DNA of 64,000 nt from Mytilus edulis (Eukaryota). The stretch lies in assembly GCF_963676685.1 (NCBI RefSeq), contig NC_092344.1:46128001-46192000 (forward strand). Direction: 5' to 3'. The position numbers and the translations under genes were made by a program. Numbering within the stretch: the first letter of the stretch is position 1; each line of letters starts with the position of its first letter. The notes beneath the pieces are model-generated. The model was not told the origin of the DNA, searched no databases, and saw only the letters and a program-made list of their open reading frames with translations. Positions 31,087 through 63,821 of this stretch are shown one piece after another.

Positions 31087-33751
31087 ACTGGAAACACTAT
31101 AATACATTTCTATATATAACTATATAACGAAAATCATATATTTATTTATAAAGCATATATTTCTATATTATTGGATTATCTGAGTTGCTTTTCCATATAA
31201 AGCAAAGTTTTTTTTTTTTTTTATTTCTAAACAGAAAAAAATGTTCTTTTCCGAATAGTGCCAACTTGGGTAGATGTGGCGATAATTAGGAGTAAAACAG
31301 TGGGAATGCGGGGTAAAGGGGAAGTGGGTGAGGTTCTGTTGAAAGAGGAAGGGGAAAAGTCGGAAATAGTGTTGAAATTACACAAATGTGAAAATTGAGA
31401 AATATTTAGCATGCTGCATCAACGTATAAAGCCCCTCCCCTCCCCCTCAAATTTTTGGAGTCCGTTCCAAAAAAAATCTCACAATTAACTGTTAAATTTT
31501 TTTTTACCTTTATCTTCAAATAAGCGACTTAATCTGCTATTATAATGCCAAAAAAAATGATTCAAACACATTCAAAACGCCAAAATTTATCGGAAACTTA
31601 AAAATTTTGTCTTATGTGTTACTCGTTAAAAATGAAATGCACACTTTATTTAAGGATAAGTGCTTGCAAGTTCGCAGAAAAAGGGTTTAAAGTTTTTTAA
31701 TCATGAATTGAAATATAAGCAAGATGCAGATACTGGTTTATTAATTGTAGCCTGTGTCGATATGAATAAACCATATTTTTATTCTTTATTTTTATATGTA
31801 AATTTCATTTCTTCGAACCTGTCGGAAACAACTCTAACCATAGACTGGGATCCCGCTATATATAATCACCTTGTTCTATATATAGACAGGTGGAGACCAA
31901 CGCCATTTTAGTTCTTTTTTGAACTATTTAATGCGCAACCAGTCGCGCAGGAGATTCCGGATGTTTCATAGGAATTTCCTTATTATGAATACAGCTGAAT
32001 GGAAGAACGTCTGCTACAATAAAGATCGATAAGCGCATTTAAATGGTATTCTCAAAAAATAATTGAATGTATATAACATGTAAAAATATTTATTATAAAT
32101 ATAATTACCAAAACAAAAAGAAAGATCTACCCAAAAAATGAGGATTTAGATATTTTATTTTTATTTTTGGCAATAGCTATTTTTGCAGTACTGTCAGATC
32201 ACAGCCAAAGGAGTTCAAACTACATGTGCACTAATTAAAATTTAACAACTGCTGTGATTTAAGCCGTCAAAATAGCATTTTTCTATAGAAATGGCTATTT
32301 TCATTTATCTGCACCAGCAATGACAGCAATATATGACCCCCCCCCCCCCCATATATATAGACTATAGTGACTTGACTTGTTATTGTGCTGATGGAAAGTT
32401 TAATATCTATGAAAATGTGCAGTCAACATAAAAGAATCAAATACTTACTGATATAACAGTATTAAAATAAGAAAACAGCCAACAATATTTGAAATACATA
32501 TAATTGTTTGAAAATTTTAAACATCTATTGGTCAAAGTGAAAACATTAGTTCACCTCAGTATAAAAGCAACAGGGCATACAAATCTTTGGACCATCACTA
32601 GGATATTTAGTCGGGGAACATTTCTTTACTGAGAATTTAAACAAAATAGAAAAGTACAAAGAAGGGCTGTAAGATTTGTCACAAACCAATACACAGATAC
32701 AAATGTACACCTCAAGCGTTATAGTGACATAAAAAAAAACACACATTGTATGCATGCCTGGTCATGTTTTATAAAATCATATATTATCTCATTGCAATCA
32801 CAACAACAGACTAGTTCACCTGTTAGACAGTCCGGGAACATGCACACACTCTTACTATCAGATTCCATCCAGCAGAACACAAATAAGGCAATAATCATTT
32901 TTTAAATTATAGGCCATATTAATTTAAAGGATAAAAATGAAGATGTGGTATGATTGCCAACTCTCCACAAAAGACCAAATGACTCAGAAATTAACAACTA
33001 ACAAAGAAACAAAACAAAATTACCAATATTTAACAAAAAATAAACAAGTCACAACAAACATTTTCAAATTCAATTTATAAAAGATGACATACATGTAGAC
33101 TCCTTTGTAGAAAGCAGTATAATATCATATATAATATTATAAGTTGTTTTCATCTCTAACAAACTAACAAGGTGATCATTGGACATTTTTTTTCCATCTT
33201 AAATATAATACTGTCTTCTTTAAGATTTCATCAATTTCCCAGCTAGCTACTTTCTTCAATTTTATAAATTTATCTTCGTTATGGTAAACAACATTTTGAC
33301 CTGTGTTTCCCAGTATTTTGATTTAAAGAAATGATGAAACTTTCACCAAAACCAAATAATTGGAACATTCAAGTAAACATAGACTATCCAATACATGTAA
33401 AATGTACTAGTAATCTTCTCTTGGTTAGACAATGTAGAAAGTTTTCTTTTTAACTTATTTTTTTAATTAAGTTATGTCATTAAACTATAGACTGTTCTAA
33501 ACAAAAACAAAATTAAATGTTTTTTTCTGATATCAAATTTAATTCCCTGTACACTAGACAACATAATGGAAATAACTCTATTCATAGCTACCTATTTCTA
33601 CTACTGTGTTGCCTGTATTTATCTCATATTTATTTATATTATATATTTATACGAATTTATTGGTATTTAAACTAGAACAATTAACTCACAAACTTTTTGT
33701 GACTTCATAGGGTTGTAAAAGTGTTGACAGTGCGCACATTTTTAGAATTAA

Positions 33752-34171
33752 GGGTACAAAAATTTCAGCAAAAAATAGCTCCAAATTATCTCCCTTTGGT
33801 GCAAACATGCTACTTTTTGGCATCAAATTTGAAATAACTTTTTTTGATCATCGGTGACCTATATTTTTTTATCATTGTTTTCAAATAAGCTAAACATTAA
33901 CTAAATAATTGTAAAATTAAAGTGATTTCTGTAATTAAGTTCTTTTTTTTATCTCAATAGTACCTCTTTTTCTCCTATTTAGTTCAACAACAACAAAAGT
34001 AGTTTTACACAAATGTATGCTTCTTCCAAAGGCAGATTGTGAGCCTAAATGATAGGTGACCATTCTTTTTTATTTTATTTTTCTATTAGGCATAAGATAA
34101 AGTTCATTTTTAGAAAAATTAGCGAAATCTTATATTAAATTAAAAAAAAAGATTTAGACCTGCGAGCCCCC
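33752..34171. mobile_element. TTAA-flanked Kolobok-like non-autonomous insert nested in a hairpin repeat inside the large transposon
   Basis: TTAA at 33748-33751 and 34172-34175; GGG.../...GAGCCCCC ends; host-repeat arms cttcatagggttgtaaaagtgttgac / gtcaacgcttttacacccaatgaag are split by it. Confidence 0.5.
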
Positions 34172-34373
34172 TTAAGTGCTTTCGCACTTTATACAAAATG
34201 AACTTCCGTCAACGCTTTTACACCCAATGAAGTTTCAAAAAGAAGCATTCCATTCTTGAATAAGGAACTAATTTCTTTTTAAATGCTCAATGGTCATGAC
34301 CGTAATAAATTCAAAGATATTTTTTTGTTACAGATAGAAAGCTAACATCAAGCAGAAAATCGAACAACTATAT

Positions 34374-34638
34374 AGACAAGATGGAACACTATTAAGTTAA
34401 TAGTTACTAGACAGACAAGATGGAACACTATTAAGTTAATAGTTACTAGACAGACAAGATGGAACACTATTAAGTTAATAGTTACTAGACAGACAAGATG
34501 GAACACTATTAAGTTAATAGTTACTAGACAGACAAGATGGAACACTATTAAGTTAATAGTTACTAGACAGACAAGATGGAACACTATTAAGTTAATAGTT
34601 ACTAGACAGACAAGATGGAACACTATTAAGTTAATAAC
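34374..34638. repeat. 39-bp minisatellite, ~6.8 near-identical copies
   Basis: Unit acagacaagatggaacactattaagttaatagttactag; explains the 13-aa repeat of ORF 34348-34674. Confidence 0.95.
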
Positions 34639-35199
34639 ATATATTAAAGTAAGTAAGAATAGTAATGGTCCCAAAATTTAGTCATTTAAGGTGATTTCTG
34701 GATATTATAGTCTTCAAAATAAGAAGATAGTGTATGATTGCTAATGAAAAAAATATCCCCTAAAGACAATGGAACCATCGTAATCATCAACTCATTATAC
34801 TGGAAAATAAATACACACTTCATGTACAAAATATACTAAAGGCTCTTAAGCTTTGCTGGTTCCAATGTAGAATTATTCAGAGCATTTTAGGATATAATTC
34901 ACTACTTAACCATGTTTACAAGATAAAAATAAAAAGTAGTATCATATGTTCTTTGGCACCGTACAAAAATACTATATTTACCGAACAAAGTCACATAAAG
35001 TATTGCAAAAAAAAAAAGGGAACACATAAACTTAGAAAAATACATTTCATTGAAAAACCCCTCTGTAGAGAAATATAATAAATCTCGAAGATTTAGTGGT
35101 GTCTTCTTAATCTATCATGTCTATCTTGGACTGGTTTATTTTTCTTCCTTGTCTGAACCCTCAACTCTCATTAGAAATAGGATACCTAAAACTTTATTC

Positions 35200-36080
35200 A
35201 TCCAGTAGGTCAATAAAGCAAAAAAAATTATTACATTCATAGTATAAGGGAGATAATTCCTATTGATGTAATAAAAATATGTACTAAATTTTATTGGGAC
35301 AATATCAGCCAATCAAATTACGAAAAATTACTCCAGCATTCAGCCAATTTTTATTAGATATTTTTATTTATAGATGTGAAGAGACTTATGCACAAAGCTG
35401 AACAACGAGACAAAAATGAATTATATATGCAGAATTAGAAATAAAACAAAAAGCAAGGTAAGTTCAATTTGTGACACAGTTTGAACGTCAATAATAAAAA
35501 AGGGACATAATAATGTAAGATATTAAAAAAGGTTTTTGTAATTTGACAAAATTGAACCTTTTTGGCTGCAAAAAGCGAATTGTTATTTCACTATTTCACT
35601 TTCATTATTGATTGAACAAAAAAAATCAAACTTTAGATTTTTTATATATCTCGTAGCTAGTGCCCCTTTAAGCAATTGCATGCAACCGTACAGCATTCAA
35701 CTATGAGAAAAATCCATATACTTATTGTCAGCTATAAAAGACTCCAACATAATAAATCCAGTAGGTCTATAAAGCAAAAAAAAAAATTACGTTCATAGTA
35801 AAAGGGAGATAATTCCTATTGATGTAATAAAAATATGTACTGAATTTTATTTGGACAATATCAGCCAATCAAATTGCGAAAAATAACTCCAGCATTCAGC
35901 CAATTTTTATTTATAGATGTGAAGAGACTTATGCACAAAGCTGAACAACGAGACAAAAATGAATTATATAGGCAGAATTAGAAATTAAACAAAAAGCAAG
36001 GTAAGTTCAATTTGTGACACAGTTTGAACGTCAATAATAAAAAAGCGACATAATAATGTAACATATTAAAAAAGTTTTTT
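35200..36080 (+). repeat. ~330-bp local direct duplication (35200-35538 and 35756-36080)
   Basis: Both copies begin atccagtaggtc and contain the same 84-nt AG|...|GTAAGT-bounded segment. Confidence 0.9.
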
Positions 36081-36438
36081 TTATTGATATTGAATTGATA
36101 CTTGGATACACTAACTTGGGATAGACACAACAATGCAGCGGGTTAAAACATGCTTTTTGAGGTCTCAACCCTCCAATACCTCTAGACAATGTAAAAGAAA
36201 CAAATACATAACAATATGCACAATAAAACTCATCGTAGAAAAAAAAGTACATGTATGTGTCATTGCTTGAGTTTAAAAGCTTTATAGGCTGTGGATGGAT
36301 TCTTATGACTACTTTGTAAATTGCATAACTGTTTTAATTTCATGCAATACAGGCTTTTTACAGTTTAAAGGAAAACTGTATTAAACAATGCATACTTTTA
36401 ATCTTTCCTTTTTATAGTTGATTTCTAATACCAAGAGG

Positions 36439-39400
36439 ATGAATGTAGGTCTAGGTACACCTATCAAGCAGAGAGAATGTGATAGAGATTTTTGTTTAGT
36501 GTGTGGGAATTTTGCAAAGGAAGCCCGTAGAGTTGAAACCATCCGGAAGTTAAAAGGGAAAGATTACAGTTTAAAGGACTTATTGAAGAAATATGGTGGA
36601 ATTAATGTTGAAAGTGGAACAGTATGTAGAAAATGCAGTAAAAAAGTTGACTCTCTTCACAAAAAGAATACTGATTTTTACAATGAATGCCAAAAAAATG
36701 CTGGAATGTCAAAACGAATGGCTTCCTCACCACATATAAATCCACCAAAGAGAATAAATATGTCAACACCAAAAACATCTACTCAATATGCCGCAGTTTT
36801 CAGTGACAGTGAAGAAGAAGAAGATGACATTTCCATCATTGGTTTACATTTATCAGATGAAGGTAATTAAGTTAAAATATATGTTTACTTAAACCTGGCA
36901 ACAATGAGTTGGGTGGTGCCCAATGAAACCCTTGCAAAAATGCAGATAATACAGATTCTTTACTATAAAGTTTCTGGGGGACCAGGAACCATTGTAAATA
37001 CATATAAATGTAATTTTGTATACTTATTAATCAATAACTTTAAAAATTTAATAATTAGACACATAAGCTAACAAACATTATAAAAGAATTAAAATACCAT
37101 TTATGGTAGCCACACTATTGTGTTGATTTTAACTTTTGTCCTTGTACATTGAACATATCCTAGGGATCATAATTTCGTAAAAACCACGGTGGCTGAAATA
37201 ATTTTCACACTTTGATGTGTGGTTTCATGTGAATAAATGTAAGTGAAGTGCTATGTATATACATTATTTTTAATTGGAGTTATTTCCCATTGCTCAGAAT
37301 GGGACTAGAATTAATTTTTTTTTTGATAGGTGGCCTAGATTGATGCTTATGTTATGATCTATTTTAATTTATGAGTTATCTAAGTTTGAACAGGAATGGT
37401 TTAATTAATAAGTTTATGGTTAAATACATGTAGTATATCAATGAATGTATCTCTTCAAATGGTTTTAGTCAGAAGTTGTAAAAATATCATTATAACTATT
37501 TTTAAGTTATTTGTCTTTTTAATGTAGAAGTCCCAGTTGATCCTGTTTGATTTTCAAGATTTCCAAATATCATTTTCATGCAGGAATTATCACATTGGCA
37601 CTAATATCGCATCTTCCTATACCTAAATAACAGTTTACAGAACACAAAATGAAAAAAACTAAAGACTAAGCAACACAAACTCAACCAAAAACAGTTGGTG
37701 GTATGAGGTGCTCCAGAAGGGTAAGCAGATACTGCTCCACATGTGGCAGCAGTTGTCTTGTTCAAGTTATTACAAATCGTGCAAATAGTCTAACTGGGTA
37801 AAGTCACATGCATGAAAAGAGAAGGGGTGGTAGTAACTACATAAGGAGCATATATATCTGATGTCATCTGTCAAACTGCTCATCCATAACGGTCAACCAC
37901 CTCGTGACGGTCTCCCTCTAAATGAATTAACAAATTTCTTGGAACATAAGGTTGATATCAGATGTTGTTTAAGGGGGAGCACACTTGAATTGACTTATCT
38001 AAAAATATCAGTTAAAATCTGTTTGACAGTCAAAATGTGTTACACAGTAAAAATCTTATTTTCAAATTTGGTTCGATGAATCAATCTTTTCTATTCTGAA
38101 AATAGATTTTATTATTTGGAACAAATGTGTATACTTTTCTTTATTTTTTCATAACATTTTTATTATAGATACAGAAACAGACCAAGCACATGTATCAGGT
38201 ATCCTATCTTTACAGTCTGCATCATCTTTATCAGGATCATCTTCACATCCATTTTCATTAGATTCATTGACTTCTTCTGCTACATCTGATTCGGCAACAT
38301 CCTTTCAAACAGCTTCTATGACATCTTTGGCTTCATCTAATTCTGTAACATCAAACCAAACAGGTTCATGTTCAACATCTACTGATCACATATATTCCAA
38401 GAATAATGAGAAATCTTCAACCGTAAAATCTAAGGGTAAAGAAGATAAGCAAAGATCAACAATTCCTGCTGCCATAGATCACGATTATATTGTATCTAAG
38501 CCTTCCCCTGTTGTACAAAATGTAATGGTAGATAAAATCATGGATTTTAAAAACAATATAGATATAAATTCAAAAACAGAAATGAAAGAAGCAGACACAG
38601 AAATTCTTATTTCAATCTTGAAAACAAAAAACAAAAGAGAAGTTATCAAACATCTCCTCACAACTGAGGGTTTTAAAGACAGCATCCTGTGCCTTTTGAT
38701 GGAGGAAATAAATTTGATGTCCAATCGTCTAAGAAATAGGAAACTATTTTATGTTAGTGAGTTGATGAAAAAGAGACCAGAGGATTTGAAATTTTTTAAA
38801 TGGAATGAAATTATTTGTGAGTTCATGGTAAAATTTCCAACAGTTTTCAGTTTGATATTGACAATGTTCTTAACGCCACAAGACATGGAGAACAAAGATA
38901 AAATAGAAGCTATTATACCAAGAATAGGAATGGTTTACAGCATGCTAATGCAGGGAAGAAACAAAGAGCTCAGCAGAATTCAGCGAATAACATCACTGTT
39001 TTTGTTTGACAACATATGTGATCAAAAGGTAAATAAATGTTTTATACTATTAATGTACAGAGAATTCATCCTTGATTCCTTTATAATGCAATGGTGATCA
39101 ATCTGGTATTGTTTTTTCTAGGTGTTATACTGGAAATAGTTAAACAAGCAAAAAGGTGGAATATATATCTATGTGTTCAAATAAATTAAAAATTCATGAT
39201 AGCTAATAAGAAAACTCTCCCTAAGAGACCAAAAGCCACAGAAATTAACAACTTTAGGTCAGGATACAGCCTTTAACAATGAGCAATTAATAACAATGTA
39301 TAATGTCGACTCCAATTTTTTATAAATACAAAAAAAAGAAAAGAAAATCATTAATGATGAAAAATCTAGCAATACAATACATCAAATACTTAAAGGGTAC

Positions 39401-42400
39401 TTTGAAGTTTTGAACAACTGTGTGCAGTGCAGTATGGTACCATGTGAGGTATAACTTGAACCAGTAGACTTGTGGTATAATAATACTGTTCAGAAAAAAA
39501 CTAAACTTTTTTTCCTGAAAAGAAGATGGTTTTATTTAGGATAAATGTTACACTTCTGGTTTTAATGTGTTTTCTTTTCAAGTTTAGACAATTCAGAATA
39601 CCTGTGAATACAATTAAACTTCAATACACAGAATACTAATTTGTTTACTCACTTAGTTTGATTTTAAAAGAATTATTATTTTTCAAATATACTTCATATT
39701 AAGGAAGATTCATTTAACTTGCAGGTGTTTGATAGACTTCAGACGGTTGGCGTCTGCCTAAGTTATGAAAGAAGCCTACAAATTGTAGAGATGATTGGAG
39801 GCCATTTCAATGATAAGGTAGTGCAGCTGGTAAAGGACAACACTCGTTTCCGAATTATTGGTGACAACATCAATTGGACTGTTGGTGTTCATGACCAACG
39901 AATTAACAACAAACAGAAAATGATGCATGCTTTTGGTTCAGCAGTGATAGTACAAAACCTGACCTTCACCAATCTAGACAGAGTTGTACCACAACAGCTT
40001 TATAGTCAAACACCAGTTCAAAACTTCATACCATCAGAGGAAGATTACAACCTTATAACAACTGACTACATCATTCTAATGTCAAGGGTTGTTTTTGAAC
40101 ACATTCCATACTTCAAAAAATTTTCAGATATTGTTCCAATTAACATCAGCACACCATGTAGTTCTAATTTGAAAAAAAGTCAGAAGTCATACCATTACCT
40201 GTTCTGTTCAAAAATGAGCAATACTATCAAGATGTCGTAGGGATACTTGACTTCTATGAGAAATGTTTAAAAGATGCGCATGATAAAGCAGGAAAACAAC
40301 TCCATAATCAGACATATCAGATAGGAGGAGACCAGCTGACACGAGAGAGATTCTCAGGAGCAAAGTCACTCAGAGCACACCATCTTAATCCTAGTGACAA
40401 ATTNNNNNNNNNNNNNNNNNNNNNNNNNNNNNNNNNNNNNNNNNNNNNNNNNNNNNNNNNNNNNNNNNNNNNNNNNNNNNNNNNNNNNNNNNNNNNNNNN
40501 NNNAAATGATGCATGCTTTTGGTTCAGCAGTGATAGTACAAAACCTGACCTTCACCAATCTAGACAGAGTTGTACCACAACAGCTTTATAGTCAAACACC
40601 AGTTCAAAACTTCATACCATCAGAGGAAGATTACAACCTTATAACAACTGACTACATCATTCTAATGTCAAGGGTTGTTTTTGAACACATTCCATACTTC
40701 AAAAAATTTTCAGATATTGTTCCAATTAACATCAGCACACCATGTAGTTCTAATTTGAAAAAAAAGTCAGAAGTCATACCATTACCTGTTCTGTTCAAAA
40801 AATGAGCAATACTATCAAGATGTCGTAGGGATACTTGACTTCTATGAGAAATGTTTAAAAGATGCGCATGATAAAGCAGGAAAACAACTCCATAATCAGA
40901 CATATCAGATAGGAGGAGACCAGCTGACACGAGAGAGATTCTCAGGAGCAAAGTCACTCAGAGCACACCATCTTAATCCTAGTGACAAATTCACCCACTT
41001 GAGTCCAATAACTTTTGAACTTTTCCACATGTTGATGTCCTACCTCAAAATGTCATTGAACCTCACATACAAACAAGAAAGTGGTCAGGATATTGGAACC
41101 TTGAAATCACTCCAAGATAGACTTTCCAGAAAAAATATTGGTGACAATGTGAATGATCACTATGAAGCAAATAAAGACTTTTTTATTTCTGTTACTGACA
41201 TGTACATTGTGGAGTGTTTCTTGGAGTTTTTTGGTATGGAAGATAAATATTCAACGCCAACTAAACATGTGCCACCAACCTTTAACACAAATGATGAAAT
41301 GAAGGAATGGTATTTCAGTACTGTGGAGATGATAGTCAAACAACATGTTTTCCTCCAAACTATTACCACAGGTGCAAAACAACAAATGCTGGAAGGTATA
41401 TATATTTATATATATATATGTGTGTGTGAGCATGAAACATTAAATGAACTAAGTTCACTAACCATCATTATAAAATACTGATAAAAGCAACTGTTTGTCC
41501 AAATACACTTGATGTGTACATTACAATTCACCTTGGTCAAATTAAACATATATACTGAATCCTTGATCAGACACACTGACATATAAAGCAGGTTTAGACA
41601 GGCAGCAAGGGTTATATAAATTGGGCGTAAGATTTTAATTTTTACTATAGATGTTTCAATTAACACTGATCAAACTATAAACTAACTTTCAGCATGAATA
41701 AGTAAGAAAACAGATTTGTTTTTTTGATTAATTAATTATGACAGAATTCTAAACTTCAAAATCTGTTCTCATTGTGATTATATACATGAATAATTTAATT
41801 TTGGATGTAACGTGTCTTCTGATTGGCTGACGTTATTTTGTTATTAGCCCATAGACATAATTTAGTCATATGACCGTGACTTCATCAACGTTTTTTCATG
41901 GTTTTCTACGGTGTAAAATGGAATTTAGAATTAAATTATAAGAAATGACTGTAATATTTTTTCTGTCTATTCGAAATAACATATAAAATGTGGTGCACAC
42001 TGTTAAATAACCCGCTACGCGCGTTATTCAGTGTGCACCAAATTTTTTATGTTATTTCTTCATAGACAGAAAAAATAATACAGTCATTCCTTAATTGGAT
42101 AGTAATTTTTATTCAAATTTGATTGTGATATTGATTTAAAAAATATATCTAATTTTGAAAACTAATTCTTTACAGTTGATGGTCAAGTATTCCGGTTGGT
42201 TTTGGCGAATGGGAAAACCATCACACTCATGAAAAAAACAATATCAAAGTCAAAGAAAGGTGATCAGATTAGTAATTATGGAAATCAAATACTCCAACTA
42301 GGATTGTTATTTAAAGATTTGATAGATATGATACATATGCCAGAAAGAGTAAGAGGGCTACGTTTGTTGAAACTTGCAATGATGTATTTTAAAATCTATA

Positions 42401-42912
42401 ATAATCTATCTAAGTATGCCTTAGAAATACTCAGACTCCTGGTACATCAGTTATGTACTTTGTCTGAGAGAGGCTCCAATGAGGAGTTCTACGCCATGTT
42501 TGTGAATACAGGAGGAAAATTTGAAACACATATACCTGCTGATCGAAGAATGGAGTACCTTGTCAAAGAAGTGAAACAACATGTTAAGCATATGTACTCC
42601 AACAAAACAGAAGAGAATATTTCAAACCGTACCAGGGCAATATCTGGAATTCGTGAAATTTCAGTGAATTTTGACCAACAGTCAGGGGTAATTATACGCT
42701 CAAAAAAACATTCCGACAAATCATCTAAGGAAGATGAACTGGCTATTTTATCAGATTTACGAGATATTAGACCATTTCATTGTCAACCTGGTAGGAAACA
42801 TTCATGTTTTGGAGAAATGTCATCATCTGTTGTTCAAAACCTTGATGTGGACCATTATCACAATTGGATCAATACCAGAAAAGTTAAATTTGCTTTGGAA
42901 AATGGGAACTAA
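36439..42912 (+). CDS. Academ-type (DUF6589-like) DDE transposase with N-terminal C4 zinc finger, 4 coding exons, ~1034 aa after correcting the gap overlap
   Basis: Exons 36439-36862, 38169-39028, 39725-41395 (minus the duplicated overlap), 42176-42912; GT-AG, phases 1/0/1, 3105 nt; CLVC..CRKC finger; motifs IIGDNINW, IGGDQLTRER, ELFHML, IPADRRMEYLVK. Confidence 0.85.
37640..37920 (-). repeat. Fragment of a Penelope-associated 3' repeat in transposase intron 1
   Basis: ggtgctccagaagggtaagcagatactgctccac is the reverse complement of the gagcagtatctgcttacccttctggagcacc block I recall from bivalve PLE-derived repeats. Confidence 0.45.
40404..40503. other. 100-N scaffold gap flanked by an artefactual overlap (39918-40403 repeated as 40504-40991)
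   Basis: The two copies appear identical apart from two A-homopolymer length differences. Confidence 0.93.
41770..42093. repeat. Interspersed hairpin-containing repeat (MITE-like); inverted related copy at ~48716-48980
   Basis: tggtgcacactg..cagtgtgcacca hairpin with flanking atgactgtaatattttttctgtctat / atagacagaaaaaataatacagtcat. Confidence 0.6.
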
Positions 42913-43499
42913 ACATTGACATAATCAAATGACTATTAATAGTCTGTAATTTGCCAGGTCCAATTTGTTTTTTTGTAACTTGTTTTCTTTGGATTGATCT
43001 GAAGATTGAAGATATTTCATCAGATTTTTGTAGATTGTTGTTATGATGTATTTGATAATTACACGATTTTCCCTGGTTGGGTGAAGGGTTTGACACCTTC
43101 AAACTAGTTAAACCCAACCATAGTCTGTTGTTGTTGGTTGATCTAATATTTGTATTTTTTTTAATTTTTTTATATGAAATAGAGCACTTAGTTTTCTAAA
43201 AAAAAAATCTCACTTTTTTCAAGTGGGACCTTTTATAGCTGACTATAGGTTTATCTCATTGTTAAAGGCTATACTTATTTGATTGCTTACATTTAATTCT
43301 TTTGAACTTTGGTCATGAGAGTTGTCTCATTGGCAATCTTACCACATCTCCATATTTTTATGACAGTTCTTCTTAATTAAAACTACTATATAGCTTTTAT
43401 CCAATCAATCATTTTTTCTTCAAATATATTCCACCTGTGGTTTGTATTGATATTTGATATGTAAAGGTCATAAAGTTTTTTTTTTAAACCTGGTTAATG

Positions 43500-45160
43500 G
43501 TAAACATAAAATCAAAAGAACTAACATACAATATGCATATAGCTTTTTATATACTACAAATATTTTCAACTTTTTAACTAGTTACATGAAACATTTTTTA
43601 CCTATTATAAAGAAAATGCACGATTACTTACACTGTTTTCTTTAGTTTAAAAATCTACAGTTACCATATACAATGTAGAGAATATTGGACATTTTCTTTG
43701 CTGTTTCATATGATAGACCAGCAATAATTACTTTAGATTGGAAATAAAATATTCACCTTTTTTTTTAGATATTAGCAAAGGCAAAAATGATTATTCAAAA
43801 TTATTTTTTTTGTCAAAATAATTCACAAATTAAAATAGTGGAAAGATACAGATATTTAGAGTATTTTACCGGTAGTTATTGTATTTATTTTTTATTGAAA
43901 TTTAAAAAATGCCACAGATGATCTCTTTAATAAAGCTCTACAAGTCTTTTTCTCCGTTAAAAGTATATAATTGTAATTTCTGTGAGGTACCCTTGAAAAC
44001 CTGTCTTAAGGTGGTACCCAACACTTTCACTAAAATTAATTTGGTTGGTTTAATTTTCATAAAATTTCGTCAAAGTATTTACTTTGAGACTTTGATAAAT
44101 ATATAAAAAATTTAATTTTTTTGAACCAACCGTTTTGTCAGAAAAAATACACTGGTTATATAGCAATTTGACAAACTCCAATTTTGATCATTGAGAAGCT
44201 AAATATTCCTTTTACAACACAACGTAATTAAAACGTTTAGCTGATTTTACAGAGTTATCTCCCTGTAGTGTTAGGTACCACCTTAAACTTTTTGAAAGTC
44301 TGATTAAACCTTTTTTCACATATGGTAGTGAAATGTGGTTATTTGATCATTACATAAATTTGAATAATTTTGACAATCTACCAACTGATAGAATACAACA
44401 AAAGATGTGGGAATATATTCTGAGGGTCAAAACATAGTCATCAAATATGTCTAGTAGACTTGAATGTAACAGGAATCCAATGTTGTTTATTAATTTTGTT
44501 TAATGTATAGTTATCATAAAACAATACTTAAAATAAATATAGCTAGAATATTATATAGTGCATTTAATGCAGGTCAATAATTATCTCATGAAAACTTAAA
44601 ATGCTTGTTTTCTACACTGAATAAAATGTTAAAATACTTAAACTTAATACAAAAAAATTGACAATAAAAACTCTTATAAGATAATATAATCAGCAATCTG
44701 TCTTACAACCACAAATAATCATATCTGGAGCTGTGGACAGAAACCTGGTGTTTTTTAGTAATATTTTTGTTTCAAATTTTGTTCCCAGTACTATCTTCAA
44801 ACCAATCTTTTCAAAAATATGAAAAGTAAAATTACACACTTACATGTATGTGCTCAGTTTTTAAATTTTAAAATGGGAAGATACGATAAACCCAAAATTC
44901 CAAGATAACTACGTTTTTCACTCAGTACAGACTGAAGAAGATTTATAAAAATCTTGTGATGAATATAAAGTGTTTAAAGGTACCAGATTATATTACAAAA
45001 TATAAGGCACATTGTTTACCAATCTTATGGCTTAAATTTAAAAGATTCATGAAATAATCATTTTCTAAACTTTTAAATCCACAAAATATTACTGAATGTA
45101 CATGTAATCATTTATTCAAATTTGTCAGAGATGCATTAGACATAGGAAACAATTCATAAA
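43500..45160 (+). pseudogene. Highly decayed non-LTR retrotransposon ORF2 C-terminal remnant between the two transposon genes
   Basis: At ~44287-44340 LFESLIKPFFTYGSEMW resembles the LINE LF.SL.KPIL.YGSE.WG motif; otherwise riddled with stops; boundaries approximate. Confidence 0.4.
44010..44282. mobile_element. TTAA-flanked Kolobok-type MITE (273 bp)
   Basis: TTAA|GGTGGTACCCAACACT ... AGTGTTAGGTACCACC|TTAA. Confidence 0.8.
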
Positions 45161-45548
45161 AGGAGGGTTACAATTGTATAACATGTGAAACATTGAAATT
45201 TTGTTTTGTATGATATCATACATGTATGACATTTAATGGAGAATACTTATGTTATATTACTTATCTAATCTGAATCTGAAAATTTGGAGTTATCTCCCAT
45301 TGTTTTGACCAACTTTTTGTGAATGAAGTATTAGTGGTACATTTTATTTCTAACAGTCAAACATTTTAATTGAAAGGTGGCAAATTAGGTGTTCTTCAAC
45401 TTAATTATTTGTTTACTTCTGAAAATCATAACAAGATAGGCCTATTTTCTTGTGTTTTTTTTTATAAAAATTTGTTTAAACAATGAAATAGCCCAGTCAA
45501 TCCATTTTAACTTTCGACTATTAATATGCAGTTTTAAATTGTGTAGAT

Positions 45549-48500
45549 TTAATTTAATTTTTGTACAATGAGTAAAATGTTACTCAAATAATGCTGCTTT
45601 AGGTGAACATAAGGAAATAAGCCCTGGATGTCCTCTTCACATTTAATGTCTTTGTAGTTCAAAACAATTTTGTCACACAAAGTTTGGGTCAATCCTGTCA
45701 CAAGTTGTTGGTTTAACATGTTTATTTGATCATTTTCTGCATTGAAATAAGATTCTAGCATTTCCTTTAATTGTGTACAATCAGGTTCATCAGCACATTG
45801 ACAATTATCTATGACGTCACACTTTTCCACTTCACTTACAAGACAATGATCACATTCACACTCTTTTTCACATACATCACAGCAGTTATGCTTAAGTATT
45901 GAATCTAAATCAACCTTTGTCTCAAAATACTGGCTTAGAAACTTTCTTCTGCATGTTTTTAGGAGGCAGAATTCTCTCACTTCTGGTTGTACAATTGTGT
46001 TGGTGGCAATATCACTCATATTGTAATGCATATATGCACTGCTTTGTCGACCATCTCTACCAGCTCTACCAATTTCTTGTAGATAACCTAAACGAGTAAA
46101 CAATAATTGTTTTTGTTAAATCATTTCCTTTCATTTTTCAAATTTTTGGTTCTGACATTCATGAAAAAAACGAAACAATATTACATATTTCAAATCTTAG
46201 AACTGCAATTTTTTTCTAAGAACTAGGGGTTCAATTAGTCATAGTGAAATGTTTTTTTTTTCATTTTCTGTTAAAGTCTCATGTTTTTTTGCATGTTGGT
46301 GTATCAGCATATGAAAATGTGACCAACATACAGCATTGGCTTTTGATCTCAAGGTGAAAATATGGATTTTTGTATTGTAAATACTTGTGACCTATGACTT
46401 TTCATCTTTTTTTACAAAGTGTTATGATATTTGGAATATCACAAAAGGATGAAGTGTATGATTTTTAGGCGTCTATGTATATATATATATATAGTTACAA
46501 TTATTGGCCTTTCACTTGTTGTAAAATATGAAAGTCTTTGTGAAAATTAATTAATATATGCATAATCCAGAACTTTTCTATTTAGATAAATTTATTTATA
46601 TTTATAAATATGCAATTGTGTAATATATATGTATTAGACGGCAGTCAAATTTTTTAAGGTGCTTATGATCCAATTCTTGCAATTTAAATATTATAAACTG
46701 TTAACATAAATAGTTAGTTTTATGTTTCCATATGTAGATGGGAGATAACTACCCTTATATTTTATCAGTTGAGTCTGCTTTTTATGCAGCTCTGAACACC
46801 ATGGTTCTGTTGGTATTAATAGACACAGTCTAAAGGGGAATAATCCTTACATATGATACTGATTGTCTCCCATATCAATTATGTATTCAGTGTTTTATAA
46901 TGTTGTATTTTATTATATTATTATTTCATTGTTATCATATTGTATGAAATTTTGAAACCCTAATAACCTTTAGTGTAATACGTTATATAGCCTTAATACT
47001 TGCATTCCAAAGAACTTGGTGGTCCAATGTGGCAAACCCTTTCCACATCTGGGGCATCAGTGCCCATACCATAAGCTTGAGTGGCAAAAAGCAACTTTAT
47101 GGATCCATGTGTGTCTGCCATGTTCTGTGCTATATTTTTTTTCATCTAGAATTATACAATTTATTTCAAATGCAAATGATTTATAATGATTTCATTTTTC
47201 TTTATACATGTAAAATACTGTTTCATTCAATTCGTTGTTTATTGTTTAATACTAATGAAATATGTTGAATAAAGTGGACATGGACATTAATGTTCTGTAA
47301 CAATTAAACTGTTTTTTTTTGAATCCATGTACAAAGATGAATAAGGGTTCTGTCCATGGCCAAATATTAAAATTAAATCAAAGTCAAAAGCACTAAATGC
47401 ATGAGCGTTATGAGTATATGACCGCATTAAGTTAAAATGAAAATTCATAATATAAGTAGTAACCAATGGATGTCACTGTCATAATTTGTTGGACAATATT
47501 AGTGATGGGCACATCTAATGATTGGTTTATTTTTCAACTCTTAAAAAAAATATTTCTGAAATATGCTTATTTCTTGTAAACCATATTATGAAATTAAAAG
47601 AAAAATCTTCTACCTTAAGAATGGAAGTATTATTTATTACAAAAATATGTACAAAAACATCAGACCAAAATGAAAATAGAAAAAATATTTGTACTCCTGT
47701 GGAGTCAGTATACCAGATTTGAATCCATTCCTTTTTTTGAAAGTTTGCCTGGAGTTTGCTTGTCTATGTTTGATTTCTTAGTAGATTATAAAAGGAATGC
47801 TTTATCAATATTTAAAATAACCTCATCTGTGCAAGGTGCATGGAACTGTGACACTGCTGAAAGTATTTCATCGGTATTGTCTTCCAGGCGGGCTGCCTGT
47901 GACACCATGTCATAGCCTACTCCACACCATTTCAGTTTTGAATAAACAATAGTTTTGGGAACATTCCAGATCTGACTACAAAGTTCCTCAATATATGGGT
48001 TTAACACATCTTGATATGAACCTTCTGCTGTTGTTTTACCTCCAGTGAGAGGTAAACGTTTTTGAACTATAAGTTTGATGTTTGGTCTATCAACTGGACC
48101 TGATAGGGAAAACACATCTTTCATACAAAGTTGTTGTTGTATCTCTTTCCTCATTTTCGGTGTTGCTGTTGCTGTAAGTGCTAGGATTTTTGCCTGTGGC
48201 AATATTGCACGTAATTTTGAAATGTTTCTGAAATCTGGACGAAAATCGTGTCCCCATTGAACTACACAATGAGCCTCGTCTACTACAATGTGTGACACAT
48301 TTTCCCAACTCTTCTGCTTAAAAATGGTGCAAACTTCTTTTTTTAGAATTTGTTCAGGGTGGCCAAAAATGTACTCAAATTTACCATCCTTGAAATCTGC
48401 TGCCTCTGGTCCTGAAATATAAAAATTAAACCTTTTTGGTACATAAACACCATTTATTTTTAGACTTTGATTAATAATAAGATTAATATGTATTTACAGA

Positions 48501-50052
48501 TTTAATGTAAAAATATTATTAACAGTTTAATTCTTTAGAAACAGATGCATGAATGTAAGGTAATGTATTGCCCACAGGATTCATTTGACATTGGTCTCAT
48601 TTCATGTTTCTATTTCTATAACTAGCTGCAATCAATATTCTATATATGAAATGATTGTGAAGTGTACATGTATTTCCATCTTGGTTATCTGACATTAAAA
48701 TTTTGGTTTATTTTATTTAGGGAATTTTATGACTGTAACATTTTTTCGGTCTATGAAGAAATGTTATAAAAAAAGGTGCTGCACACTGAATAACCTGTAT
48801 ATGTGTTATACTAAAGTGTGCACCACATTTTTTATTGTTATTTGTCCATAATTTTATTCTAATTTTGAAAAGGTTGATGACGTCACAGTCACATTTCAAA
48901 ATTATGTCTACATGTATGAGCTGATAGACAAAACACTGTCAGCTAATCATAAGACTTGTTACATCCAAAATAAAATTTTGGTTTAATACTTGTATTTAAA
49001 TTTTTAATTTATGAATATCATTGCATAAAACATTTGGTTTGAAAAGCAGGAAAGACAGTTCAGCATGTGCAATTTTGTTTTAATAAATGATTGAAGACAA
49101 GTATTTTAACATGAAATATAAAATTAAACTTATCAATTTTTGGTTATATAAAGCAATAAGCACATCAACGGTTCCTGGTCCCCCAGATTATATCAAGAAT
49201 CTGTATTATCTGCCATAATGGCAGGGGTATCATTGGGCACCACCCAACTCATTGTTGCCAGGTTAAATGTGTCATGCAACAGTACTTGAACTTATTATAC
49301 ATAAGATGTAGTAAGAGGTCCAATGAGGCAACTATCAATACAAGTCACTAGCCTATTTTAAAAAGTATTGCCGAAACATTTTTCTGCAAAGTGTAGCGAG
49401 GCTAAAAATAATAAACGAAGGAATCATGCTTTCTGAGTGTTTCCCAGACCCTGTCTTAATCTGAAAGCTTGAATGTGTTCTGTTTCAAAATTGTTTATAT
49501 TTTGGACTCAAAGCAAAATGTATAGAATCTGTGTAAGACTTTAGTTTCTAGGGACAACATCTAAAGAAAAATATTTAGGATAAAGCAAAAATGTAATTCA
49601 CATAGTTCAGCATGTGGCCACTGGGTTTTCCTTTTTTTTTTGTGTGTGTGACTGTTTCAGCTTGCATAATTTTAATCTTTTATACCTGTAAATTATTAAA
49701 AAAAAATTCAAATAAGTCAAGAGGGGCTGAATATCATTGATATAACTATGTCAAGTAAGTTTTTATAACACATTTCAATTACAATTTGATGTAGCTCCTA
49801 TAAACTTGGATACAATTTTTAGTAGTTGAAAAGTTGTAATTTTATATTAGCTATATAATATAAAACTAAAAGGTATGCAAAAAAGAATCCAGGATCAGGT
49901 GTTTAGTGTTTGTAAGCTCATGATTATGGGATTGACCCTTTCAGGATAAAGGAATTCTTTTTTCAAAATTTCATGATTATGATTTGTTTTGATTTTGGAC
50001 TTCAGGATTTCATGTTTTTTAAGTCCAGGATTTGGGGATCACAACCCCTCCT

Positions 50053-50087
<35 letters not shown>

Positions 50088-53000
50088 TTTCCCTTCAATG
50101 CAGACATTTCAATTGTATCTAATTAATATTTATTCTTTTTTAAATAAAAGATATGGGAATTTTTTGCAGATTTTTTTTTTAAAAAGATGAATATTATAAA
50201 TAATCTGGTGCCCTCTCAAAGTATCAAACTATGAATAGCATTTATGAAATGGCTTAAAAGACCTGCTGAGTTATTTATTTTCAATAGTAAAACATTGCAA
50301 GTCAGATTAGTTTTTACAAATTACCACAGAACAAACCATTTATTTTTGTGATCATCAAGGCAGCCCCATGTTAGGGGAGGGGGATTCTGCCAACATGTTT
50401 AACTCAACACATTATATATGTATTTGCCTGTCCCAAGTCAGGAGCCTGTAATTCAGTGGTTGTCGTTTGTTTGTGTTACATATTAGATTTTCATTCATTT
50501 TTTTATACAAATAATGTAAGGCCGTTAGTTTTCTTGTTTTGAATAATTTTACATTGTCATATAGGGGCCTTTTATAGGTGACTATGCAGTATGGGCTTTG
50601 CTCATTGTTGAAGGCTGTATGGTGACCTATAGTTGTTAATGTCTGTGTCATTTTGGTCTCTTTTGGATAGTTGTCTCATTGGCAATCAATTACCACATCT
50701 TCTTTTTTAGTTATTTATTTCACCCCCCACCATGAAATGGTTGTTCCCTTACACAACATATTTTCTGTTGAAGAACAAATAAATATACATTTATAAATAT
50801 AATTTGTTCTTCTTCTTCTTCTTCTTTATAATTCAGCACTCCATCAACATACTGATGATAACGTGCCGGGCACTGATTTTACTATGCCGCGCGTGCGTGG
50901 GATATACATTTTATTTACAGTGAAAAATACAAAAATAAAAATAAAAATTTCAACATTTATAACTTCTTTTTCTTCTGTTTTTGTACTATACATTTTGGTT
51001 AAAACTATATACATTGTAGAATTTATTTAAATGTTAAGATGTTTATTGAGAACAGATATTGGAATCTGTTCTCGGAAGCTTTCAAGAGTAGTACATTGAA
51101 CTGCAGCTACTGGGAGAAGGTTCCATTGCAAGATGGTTCTAGGGTAGAATGAATACTTGTATGAGTCTTTAGTGGTTTGTATGGGTCTGAAAGAGTAAAT
51201 ATGTGAATGTTGTCGTGTTCTTGTATCAGATTGTGTAAGTAGGTCTGTCGGATATATGGCAACAAGATGATGTATAATTTTGTAGAGGAAAATGATGCGG
51301 GTTCTAATTCGCCTTTTCTCAAGTGTTGCCCAATTTAGAGTTTGTAGCATTTCAGTGACTGAGCTGGTGTTATGGTATCTGTTGCAGGTGTACCTTGCTG
51401 CTCTGCGCTGGACCATCTCAAGTTGGTGTGTTTGAGATTTGGTGTGCGGGTCCCAGACGCAGCTGCTGTATTCTAGCTTTGGTCTTACTAGTGCAATGTA
51501 TGCTTTTTCTTTGACTGTTTTTGAGTTGACTTTTAGATTCCTTTTAATAAAGTTCAGCTTTTGTGTGGCTGCAGCTGTGATATTGTTTACATGTTTGTTC
51601 CATTTGAGATCAGTTTGTATAGTTATTCCCAGATATTTTGTGGATGTTTCTTTTTGAAGTACATGTTGGTGGAGAGTATAGTCAAAATTTAATGGGTTTT
51701 TCTTAGTTGTTATCTGAAGGACTGAGCACTTGTCTGGATGGAATGACATGAGCCAGTCCTTCTCCCATTTTGCAGCTGATGTGAGATCTTCTTGCAGTTT
51801 TTGTGTGTCTTCTTTGTTTCGTATTGTTTTATAAATTATGCTATCATCTGCAAATAATCTGAGGGTACTGTGTTTGATGTATTCGTTAAAGTCGTTTATG
51901 TATACAAGGAAAAGGATCGGACCCAAAACTGTTCCTTGGGGAACACCAGATGTTACATTTATTTTGTCTGACTGAACACCATCAATGATCACTGTTTGTG
52001 TCCGAGATGTGAGAAAATCTTCTATCCATTTTAAGGTGTTGTCATCAATGCCATAATGTTTTAGTTTGTAGAGGAGTCTTTTGTGAGGAACTTTGTCAAA
52101 GGCTTTGGCAAAGTCCATCACAATTATGTCCGTTTGGATGTTACTGTTGTTATTTTTTGCTAGTTCTTGGATGAAGGATACTAGTTGGGTTTCGCATGAT
52201 CTATTTGCTCGAAATCCGTGTTGAAGGTCGTACAAAATATTGTTATTTTCTAGGTGGTCCATCATACTACTGGCTATTATGTGTTCCATGATCTTACAAA
52301 GTATGCATGTGAGAGATATGGGTCTATAATTTATTGCGTTGTGTTTATCACCTTTTTTAAAAACAGGACAGACATTTGCATGTTTCCAATCTTTTGGGAT
52401 TTTTCCTGTGTCGAGTGATTTTTGGAAGATGTAGGTGATTGCGGTTGAAATGTCACTACTAAGTTCTTTGAGTACTGTTCCGCAAATTTGATCTGGACCA
52501 GTTGCTTTGTTAGGATTGATCTTGTCCAGTAATTTTATGACACCTTTCTTAGAGATGGTGATCTTGTTCATTTTTGGATAGTTCGATTTTCCTTTATCCG
52601 GAATGGGTTCACTTGTTGTTTCTTCGGAAAATGCTTTTTGAAACTGACTATTTAGAATGTTAGTTTTGTCAGATGTATTGTCAGTAAGTTTACCATCTTT
52701 TCTAAGTGCAGCAATGCCTGTATTGTCATTTTTCATACTTTTTATGTATGTAAACAAGTTCTTAGGTTGTTTTTTCCTGATGTTGTCATCTGGTTCATCT
52801 ACTGGTAGGTCAAATATCATTTTTTCAATGTTATTCCAGTAGGCATTACGCATTTCTTTTTGTAATGTTCTTTTTAAGTATTTGTATTTTTTCATTTGCT
52901 CTGGACTGTTTTTGCTCTTTTTATGTAGTCTTTTAACTTTGTTTATCATGATTTTTAATGTTTTATCAACCCAGGGTAGTTTTTTCTTGTTTGTGATTGT

Positions 53001-53723
53001 TTTCTGGGGGATGTTTTTCTTGACTGATTGAAGTAGTCTTTCTGTAAATGTATTCCATAGTTCGTCAGTAGATGAACTATGGTAATGACCTTTGATTTCT
53101 TGTGTGAGTTTGTTCACATCTTGTTTGATGTTTTCCAAGTTAGCTTTTCTGTACTGCAACATGTTTAATATTCTGCAAAACTGGAACACAATTTAAATAT
53201 AATATCATTTATTTATATCTATTGGTATTTATAACAATAATATCAAACATATATCTGTATGAATATTTTTGGTGTCTCTGTTTATCTGTTTCATACTTGA
53301 GTTTCCCTAAAATTAAAAAGTGTCTCAATGACACTGCAGTCAAGAATGGAATGAATGAATATTACAAATACCTTCAAGACTATTTATTAGCGCTGAATTA
53401 ACATTAACAGCCTTTCTACCCAGCTTTCTTGTCTGCTCTTCAATAATGGCATTTAAGGGGCTGATTATTATGCATTTGGTGTTATTCATTTTTCCAAGCA
53501 TTTCAAAAATTAATGACTTCCCATAGCCAGTGGGTAGCATGATCAACGCATCACTTTTCATTGCACCTTGAATACTTTGCAATTGCAAAGGTTTCAAGTA
53601 GGTTAAATTAACGTTTCGCGTACAGTTGATCTTAGTTAAGGCAATTTTATGTATCAAGACATTCTTAAGTTTTTCTTTAAAATCTTTCACATCGTCTGCT
53701 GCCATATTGTTTATTGTTGTCAT
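45549..53723 (-). CDS. Transposon-encoded RecQ-like SF2 DNA helicase, 4 exons, 540 aa
   Basis: Exons 53723-53372, 48411-47822, 47145-47004, 46087-45549 (1623 nt); motifs LKPLQ, LPTGYGKS, ISPLNA, GHPE, VVDEAHCVVQWGHDFRPDF, ALTATA, FHA, ATQAYGMGTD, HIGPP, YLQEIGRAGRDG, and the Zn-binding CRR..CCDVC. Confidence 0.9.
50809..53155 (-). mobile_element. 5'-truncated CR1/L2-clade LINE in helicase intron 1
   Basis: Uninterrupted RT frame, ~200-nt 3' UTR, (AAG)n tail at ~50809-50826; endonuclease domain missing; no clear TSD. Confidence 0.85.
51027..53189 (-). CDS. Non-LTR retrotransposon ORF2 reverse transcriptase (N-truncated), 720-aa open frame
   Basis: KATGPDQI, NYRPISLT, QHGFR..RSC, DFAKAFDKV, GVPQGTVLGP, LFADD, KYLGI, RPKLEY. 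Confidence 0.9.
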   Translation of the reverse strand: MFQFCRILNMLQYRKANLENIKQDVNKLTQEIKGHYHSSSTDELWNTFTERLLQSVKKNIPQKTITNKKKLPWVDKTLKIMINKVKRLHKKSKNSPEQMKKYKYLKRTLQKEMRNAYWNNIEKMIFDLPVDEPDDNIRKKQPKNLFTYIKSMKNDNTGIAALRKDGKLTDNTSDKTNILNSQFQKAFSEETTSEPIPDKGKSNYPKMNKITISKKGVIKLLDKINPNKATGPDQICGTVLKELSSDISTAITYIFQKSLDTGKIPKDWKHANVCPVFKKGDKHNAINYRPISLTCILCKIMEHIIASSMMDHLENNNILYDLQHGFRANRSCETQLVSFIQELAKNNNSNIQTDIIVMDFAKAFDKVPHKRLLYKLKHYGIDDNTLKWIEDFLTSRTQTVIIDGVQSDKINVTSGVPQGTVLGPILFLVYINDFNEYIKHSTLRLFADDSIIYKTIRNKEDTQKLQEDLTSAAKWEKDWLMSFHPDKCSVLQITTKKNPLNFDYTLHQHVLQKETSTKYLGITIQTDLKWNKHVNNITAAATQKLNFIKRNLKVNSKTVKEKAYIALVRPKLEYSSCVWDPHTKSQTHQLEMVQRRAARYTCNRYHNTSSVTEMLQTLNWATLEKRRIRTRIIFLYKIIHHLVAIYPTDLLTQSDTRTRQHSHIYSFRPIQTTKDSYKYSFYPRTILQWNLLPVAAVQCTTLESFREQIPISVLNKHLNI

Positions 53724-54123
53724 TTACAAATGCATGCCGGGAGAAAACACCGGCTTTCCTATTTTGATGACGTCAATATTTTTAAATTTAGAACAACCTC
53801 GATTTCAAATAAAAAGATGGCGTTATACCCTACCTGTCTTGATATATGAAATATGTAATATGCACATTGATCTAGACAGGCGAACCAGTCTACTCTAACC
53901 AATCAAAAATTTGTTTGATTAAATTCATACGCACTGACAAGTGTGAAAACATTGGAAATAAACATTTTGGAAAAAAATATTAATACATGTTTAATTTATG
54001 CTAGTCCCTTTAAAGTTTTTATTTTATATGCTAAATTATGGTTGTGGAAAAACATTCGTTCATTTTGGTACATTAAAAGATACTTTAATTAGAACTACAT
54101 TGTACTTCCCATATTTAGAATAA

Positions 54124-63821
<9,698 letters not shown>

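Follow-up and report, generated by a model that had tools for sequence, protein, structure and literature searches.

About 40% of type I hammerhead ribozymes carry a pseudoknot between stem I and stem II (Perreault et al. 2011, PMC3088659), and G5 contacts A15.1 in the standard hammerhead fold (PMC3088659). Retrozymes of the non-LTR type (LTR, long terminal repeat) are mobile elements of metazoans (Cervera and de la Pena 2020, PMC7229834). AcademH DNA transposons generate target duplications of 9 or 10 bp (PMC10045372) and encode DEAD-domain helicases (PMC10799480). The subject of this study is a stretch of 64,000 nucleotides (nt) of the Mytilus edulis genome (contig NC_092344.1, positions 46,128,001 to 46,192,000, forward strand; below, the window), where an AcademH transposon carries the same RNA motif in one intron of its transposase gene and one intron of its helicase gene. 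An earlier annotation of the window, made from the letters alone (the first-pass annotation), had drawn attention to this motif. It is a real, conserved and uncatalogued RNA fold, and we tentatively consider it a self-cleaving ribozyme.

A conserved RNA fold in two introns of one element

In the element the transposase (DUF6589, plus strand) and the DEAD-domain helicase are convergent. The assignment to AcademH was based on the DUF6589 and DEAD matches on opposite strands and on a 9-bp duplication, within the 9-10 bp of this group; DUF6589 is taken by us to be a mark of Academ.

The core of motif A (36894-36991, plus strand) and that of motif B (49262-49169, minus strand) were 87% identical across 107 nt, which confirmed the first-pass annotation as to a motif common to the introns of both genes and as to its places. 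Outside this block the two introns were unrelated, the next best blastn match being 23 nt long (E 0.01). Both copies had also been assigned to first coding introns, in sense orientation. In case of the transposase this was borne out by one contig of run X15 (a run labelled RNA only by guess), in which the intron was spliced GT..AG and 36862 was joined to 38169. Since the same contig contained an extra upstream exon with an in-frame stop, the intron of motif A is the first coding intron but not the first intron. The helicase intron was deduced from GT/AG signals and frame continuity; X15 covered both exons flanking it and no RNA joint was seen across it. The X15 contig also passes from transposase exon 2 (38839) into an antisense helicase exon (approx. 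47100-47130) without splice signals, which makes it either chimeric or the transcript of a deletion derivative.

From 5' to 3' the fold consists of an outer stem (P0), an A-rich loop strand, stem P1 (5 bp), the joining strand CNACAAUGA (J1/2), hairpin P2 (5-7 bp, closed by G.U, with a 5-nt loop), GANA (J2/3), CCC, a short hairpin, the strand AUAAUA, a variable hairpin, GGGGA, the 3' strand of P1, a link of 1-2 nt, the pseudoknot tail and the 3' strand of P0. The outer stem and the loop-to-tail pseudoknot are additions of the present comparison. The statement of the first-pass annotation that the differences in two hairpins keep the pairing was correct; for the second hairpin, a loop of 3 nt gives the better drawing.

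Members in other genomes were found by one scan pattern over metagenome contigs and then scored with a model, R2, built from 20 sequences, which match it by construction. Since CAAUGAG, UGA, ACCC and AGAUAAUAC were written into the pattern, their invariance is likewise by construction. The pattern did not prescribe P0, P1, GGGGA, the pseudoknot or, within J1/2, the first C and the third A. The alignment comprised 32 distinct rows, and as these were fitted to the model and are related, the pair counts lean towards the structure. Core bases were counted in the 25 full-length rows, from which 16 representatives were drawn for P0 and the pseudoknot.

In this alignment 90.9% of 788 cells were paired, compared with 33-52% when the partners were slid by 1-3 columns, and two-sided change was observed at 13 of the 27 model pairs. 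The score was 0.302 vs 0.121 after shuffling and at most 0.09 for slid partners. Stems P1 and P2 covary, while stem III (CCC/GGG) is conserved but without two-sided change. The outer stem lacks sequence conservation, yet its pairing is kept: the flanks paired with their own partners at -8.3 kcal/mol vs -3.8 kcal/mol when swapped, and none of 5000 permutations was as good. All three pseudoknot pairs could be formed in 13 of the 16 representatives (better of two registers) with four sequence types, and two of the three in L049, L096 and L098; with the columns fixed, 70.7% were paired. There were 62 G.U cells vs 11 A.C cells, 31 of the former being the P2 closing pair, which the pattern fixes. 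In both window copies the model including P0 was within 0.2 kcal/mol of the minimum-energy fold. J1/2 is 9 nt long, with U, G, A and C as its second base in 10, 7, 5 and 3 of 25 rows, and the third base of GANA was U in 14, A in 4, C in 4 and G in 3 of 25. The distal hairpin tolerates 19-67 nt. At L090 (945-2219) it was seen as a 20-bp stem with a 1.2-kb insertion in its loop, and the motif continues beyond.

Members scored 46-106 bits and non-members at most 15.3 bits; by this gap the motif is not a product of chance. The metagenome scan gave 29 loci, 28 of which scored 57-106 bits with R2 while the remaining one failed; L087 was a chance match. No member was found in viral contigs, where the pattern matched in three sets of 12, 13 and more than 120: all of the 12 were checked by nhmmer (E at least 0.29) and 2 of them also by the model, and among the 13 of 13 and the 80 listed loci scored by the model the best reached 14.4 bits. 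Prokaryote genomes gave no member either (no strict and 5 loose pattern matches, best 11.6 bits). Looser patterns in the mussel genome itself revealed no new member among the 21, 1 and 14 loci scored; one of these patterns had 27 more matches without loci, 7 of them known members and 20 unscored. With a two-sequence model and nhmmer no match was obtained in 7 other Academ loci.

Rfam 15, with TPP, SAM-I, twister, pistol, hatchet and hepatitis delta virus-like RNAs among its families, had no match in the 64-kb window at the gathering threshold; below it, only two chance matches were obtained for motif A at E up to 10, and only chance matches for 6 metagenome loci at E up to 1. Readings as hepatitis delta virus-like, SAM-I, thiamine pyrophosphate (TPP), SECIS or small nucleolar RNA (snoRNA) were dropped after comparison by eye. 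The AUAAUA strand fits an H box, but ACA, C and D boxes were absent and the snoRNA scores were far below the cut-off. In the literature searched, outside which lay subscription journals and Repbase Reports, no structured RNA was described in Academ elements and Academ was never paired with a ribozyme; the accessible parts of PMC7229834, PMC13725137, PMC10886601 and PMC5751038 describe nothing like the motif.

Host element and further members

The 1.37-Gb genome contains 12 copies, 11 of them beside Academ genes. A DNA search gave 7 copies, every one in the AcademH family of the window, and patterns added 5 on C11. Four of the latter lie as two tandem pairs, spaced 260 bp, near a distant Academ transposase with 27% identity; in both pairs the motif is upstream of and sense to helicase exons; the fifth is decayed, with no gene nearby. 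At L052 and L055 (C11:25340000-25347000 and C11:24061900-24065000), which are distant AcademH, the helicase exons lie inside an opposite-strand transposase intron, thus the two genes interleave.

In addition 28 metagenome loci were obtained, grouped by common flanks into 8 families, some loci being duplicate filings of one sequence. AcademH accounts for three of the families (12 loci), and the helicase follows downstream on the same strand in 6 contigs. Since L096, L098 and L103 have a short ATG exon and a donor upstream of the motif, it lies in their intron 1, which interrupts a different codon than in the window. Over five AcademH families the motif was sense to the helicase, and all 6 of the 6 independent gene placements with known orientation were sense. 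The remaining 5 metagenome families (16 loci) had no Academ gene on their short contigs. The motif is not confined to Academ elements. The contexts differ (introns, 3' of open reading frames (ORFs), the 260-bp tandem pair). In one metagenome family the motif stands 3' of varied single-exon ORFs, one of which is a frameshifted TAF9 copy.

Several of these loci deserve separate description. L088, L097, L109 and L091 share a 3' block with the motif beside different single-exon ORFs, and L097 and L109 of this group also share a promoter-like block; the group looks like a gene-capturing element of unassigned class. For the ORF that precedes the motif in L097, neither Pfam nor Atlas gave a usable match. 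At L085, L086, L100, L108 and L110 the motif begins 22 nt after an acceptor-like site and precedes a donor-like site, and the core UGA of L108 would terminate the frame coming from the upstream exon. A link to hAT transposases (L085, L086, L100, L096) was rejected: the motif was antisense and outside the ORFs, and no common element ends were found.

On the helicase tree of 17 rows, with 5 short ones dropped, the 5 rows that carry the motif require 3 changes, 2 of them forced by well-supported branches; 37 of 500 shuffles were as low. The transposase tree (12 rows) is compatible with one origin. Repeated loss and movement between elements are both possible causes of the patchiness. When three copies were compared, motif A varied at 1 of its 122 sites and the flanks at 34 of 543 (p 0.012), which speaks for selection.

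The first-pass annotation had offered three readings. That of an undescribed intronic structured RNA agrees with the covariation, low copy number, sense orientation and absence of an Rfam match. A helicase or transposase DNA substrate is unlikely in view of the G.U pairs on the sense strand and the pseudoknot. An unrelated tiny repeat inserted twice is not supported. Thousands of random copies without covariation would have refuted the annotation; the genome gave 12 copies, 11 beside Academ genes, and 13 of 27 pairs were compensated.

Features of the host element are listed in Table 1. A transposase segment of approx. 490 bp flanks a 100-N gap on both sides; since the other element copies hold the segment once, the repeat is probably an assembly artefact. 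The left arm contains a 39-bp tandem array (34328-34678) and a duplication of approx. 550 bp (35190-36103), and the latter includes the non-coding upstream exon. A JmjN-domain (KDM5-like) exon, 54124-54453 on the plus strand, starts approx. 230 bp past the right end, thus the transposon is located just upstream of a histone demethylase gene.

Table 1. Coordinates of the AcademH element and of the two RNA motifs in the window
Feature	Position	Strand	Remark
AcademH DNA transposon	31841..53892	.	termini TAGACTGG; approx. 22 kb; 3 further copies on C4, C12, C14
9-bp target duplication CTCTAACCA	31832-31840 and 53893-53901		both sides of the element
Transposase first coding exon	36418..36862	+	ATG 36439; weak zf-AD match
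Transposase first coding intron	36863..38168	+	contains motif A; spliced joint in one X15 contig
Motif A with outer stem P0	36878..37006	+	
Motif A, P1	36894-36898/36982-36986	+	
Motif A, J1/2	36899-36907	+	
Motif A, P2 hairpin	36908-36924	+	
Motif A, J2/3	36925-36928	+	
Motif A, CCC	36929-36931	+	pairs with G run 36977-36980
Motif A, short hairpin	36932-36945	+	
Motif A, AUAAUA strand	36946-36951	+	
Motif A, variable hairpin	36952-36976	+	
Motif A, predicted cut	between 36981 and 36982	+	hammerhead analogy
Motif A, pseudoknot tail	36988-36991	+	
Other transposase exons (DUF6589)	38169..42912	+	N gap; approx. 490 bp duplicated at 39918-40991
Helicase exons 2-4 (DEAD domain)	45549..48411	-	
Helicase first intron	48412..53371	-	contains motif B; predicted from sequence; 2.6-2.7 kb in C4 and C12 copies
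Motif B with outer stem P0	49153..49277	-	core 49262-49169
Motif B, predicted cut	between 49179 and 49178	-	hammerhead analogy
LINE with reverse transcriptase, in helicase intron	50813..53157	-	absent from the other three element copies
Helicase exon 1	53372..53723	-	ATG 53723 or 53705

A possible self-cleaving ribozyme and the alternatives

The reading that we prefer, while giving it somewhat less than an even chance, is that this conserved RNA with its pseudoknot, present in an intron of both AcademH genes, is a self-cleaving ribozyme on a remodelled type I hammerhead fold, competing with splicing. Three helices surround the junction in the type I permutation and a stem I-stem II tertiary contact is present. 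Eight of the 12 hammerhead core positions (C3, A6, G8, A9, G12, A13, A14, H17) have counterparts once the strand is read with one base bulged out behind A13 and with C-G where A15.1-U16.1 would pair; the counterpart of C3, a position left free by the scan pattern, was C in 25 of 25 full-length rows. Bulged insertions after A13, U4C and 2-nt insertions near C3 are known from natural hammerheads (PMC3088659). Hammerheads from salterns that have insertions near C3 are poor cutters in standard conditions. Since G5 touches A15.1, the losses of both are neighbours and their joint remodelling is conceivable.

In the proposed mechanism stem 2 would dock on the tail of stem 1 through the pseudoknot, and the extra junction with the AUAAUA strand may replace the lost contacts of G5 and A15.1-U16.1. 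The retained equivalents of G8 and G12 would act in catalysis, and the cut, by analogy with the hammerhead, is expected after the A preceding the 3' strand of P1, that is 119 nt past the donor of the transposase intron and, in the helicase gene, within its intron. The nascent pre-mRNA would thus be cut in competition with splicing, which may keep the output of transposase and helicase low. Fast intronic cleavage is able to lower mRNA yield, and a varied genomic context is usual for self-cleaving RNAs. The spliced X15 contig indicates that splicing can win.

Several observations weigh against this reading. Four of the 12 core positions (U4, G5, A15, U16) fail and there are two insertions, while the invariance of A6, G8, A9, G12, A13 and A14 was fixed by the scan pattern and is not independent evidence. 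Hammerheads mutated at 15.1/16.1 lose at least tenfold activity (PMC3088659). The two CCC/GGG registers could not be distinguished (93.1% paired in both) and a single H17 needs one of them. The Rfam hammerhead models gave no match at E up to 10, and our model gave none on the canonical hammerhead core in 19 of 19 control loci of this genome. The transposase intron is normally spliced in X15, and the RNA runs, which capture small RNA poorly, showed zero read depth and no read ends on the motif; the raw RNA reads from runs X23 and X24 reach common repeats only. Excess conservation of motif B was not significant (0 of 100 sites vs 21 of 1277). Finally, 13 other Academ loci of this genome, taken as 10-30 kb pieces that are perhaps not whole elements, are without the motif, which is thus dispensable.

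The leading alternative, which we still hold to be unlikely, is a fold of the kink-turn or k-junction kind. It would be bound by an L7Ae-family protein (15.5K/Snu13, L30) or by a protein encoded by the element, and would tune or repress splicing without cleavage. At the base of P2, an AAU bulge followed by tandem GA/GA would match the standard k-turn layout, with a likeness to the U4/U4atac kink-turn, and motif A begins approx. 30 nt from the 5' splice site. A bulge with tandem G.A/A.G is permitted by the sequence at two places, partly fixed by the scan pattern. J2/3 (G-A-N-A-C) with the 3' G-G-A fits the TPP type of k-junction, here with bases interposed and with C-G as the 3b-3n pair (PMC4005666), its final A being present in 25 of 25 rows at a position free in the scan pattern. 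Repression of their own intron has been reported for intronic K-loop RNAs (bioRxiv 10.64898/2026.08.03.742641). However, there is no C-stem, the -1n position can be any base, and the RUGAUGA/CUGA boxes are missing. A k-junction needs coaxial C and T helices, while P1 and P2 are separated by 9 unpaired nt and held alongside each other by the pseudoknot. The distance from the donor is not conserved (30, approx. 320, approx. 1100 and 1750 nt). The same k-junction likeness, the three-way junction with its conserved joining strands and remote tertiary contact, and the intronic position could also be expected of a ligand-sensing, riboswitch-like aptamer governing splicing or RNA stability. The TPP switches of fungi and plants are intronic. 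We nevertheless regard an aptamer as very improbable: Rfam riboswitch models gave no match at E up to 10, the host genes have no common metabolic theme, neither a conserved expression platform nor an overlapping splice site was seen, and no member was found in the prokaryote genomes scanned.

A stable, compact RNA of the element that does not catalyse, but is set free from the intron or blocks exonucleases, would suit the closed outer stem, the pseudoknot beside the ends and the movement of the motif between introns; snoRNAs move between introns as well. The lack of C/D boxes, a 3' ACA box and a variable guide strand, and the zero motif depth in the RNA runs with their poor capture of small RNA, make this just as improbable as the aptamer. 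A slightly better, still low probability is given to a self-serving mobile module or relic in low-copy elements, of no benefit to them. It would explain the patchy distribution on the helicase tree (3 changes), the decayed copies L058, L095 and L102, and the sharing between families, which often ends at the motif edge. On the other hand, 12 copies in 1.37 Gb contrast with 26,028 canonical type I hammerhead cores, the 6 independent placements are all sense, and both copies in the element retain every stem, including the separately evolved outer stems.

Should the RNA cleave itself as proposed, it could represent a new natural class of self-cleaving ribozyme, with a hammerhead-like scaffold, an active site of its own completed by the second junction, and the role of a mobile module and intronic throttle on both genes of animal cut-and-paste transposons; this wider claim is a doubtful one. 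Known classes of small self-cleaving RNA are few, and those of eukaryotes are mostly tied to retroelements. A covarying, pseudoknotted RNA that both genes of a DNA transposon have kept, and that distant elements carry as well, points to control of transposition at the RNA level, which was not found in the literature searched. If it were ligand-gated, it would be the first riboswitch-like RNA of animals, and even without cutting the motif stands as a conserved fold of animal RNA, uncatalogued and with an alignment ready.

Comparison with known systems

The canonical hammerheads of the same genome (26,028 cores, reversed control 72; for example L067 8110-8170) are often approx. 355 bp apart, as in mussel retrozymes. 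Judged by the model on their sequences, the motif is not detectably related to them. The best non-member in 100 kb (12 bits, E 0.087) was a canonical hammerhead; it was rejected as a supporting match because such cores occur approx. twice per 100 kb and the model had missed all 19 controls.

The first-pass annotation had noted an echo of a type I hammerhead with a non-canonical core, and both topology and core were as it said, but the motif is not a hammerhead. It departs from the hammerhead on three of the features compared, and it matches no Rfam family. Instead of the strand C3 U4 G5 A6 N7 G8 A9 there is CNACAAUGA, 9 nt long and without G5; instead of G12 A13 A14 A15.1 there is GANA followed by CCC, needing a 13a insertion and C15.1; and instead of the U16.1 H17 triplet GGGGA precedes stem I, with U in 0 of 25 full-length rows. 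The absence of U4, G5 and A15.1-U16.1, together with the added conserved three-way junction, thus places the motif outside the hammerheads.

Like the type I pseudoknotted hammerheads of PMC3088659, it has an open stem I, a three-way junction, the AUGA-stem II-GA layout, and pairing of loop II with the stem I tail, which is the pseudoknot of this motif. Unlike them, it has a J1/2 lengthened by 2 nt and a J2/3 lengthened by 1, a stem II closed by G.U, and a stem III that opens into a second conserved three-way junction. With the retrozymes, so far as PMC7229834 describes them, it shares an animal mobile element and an RNA of type I topology, and the canonical family with approx. 355-bp spacing occurs in this same genome; retrozymes, however, are high-copy tandem repeats of 170-400 bp with canonical cores, whereas this motif is low-copy (12 copies, with two C11 loci that each carry one tandem pair of 260 bp) and lies in introns of DNA transposons. 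The GA-rich three-way junction resembles the TPP k-junction (Wang et al. 2014, PMC4005666), and the intronic position with possible splicing control resembles the K-loop RNAs (bioRxiv 10.64898/2026.08.03.742641), but the motif differs from both in having no TPP model match or C/D boxes, a 9-nt J1/2 and a pseudoknot.

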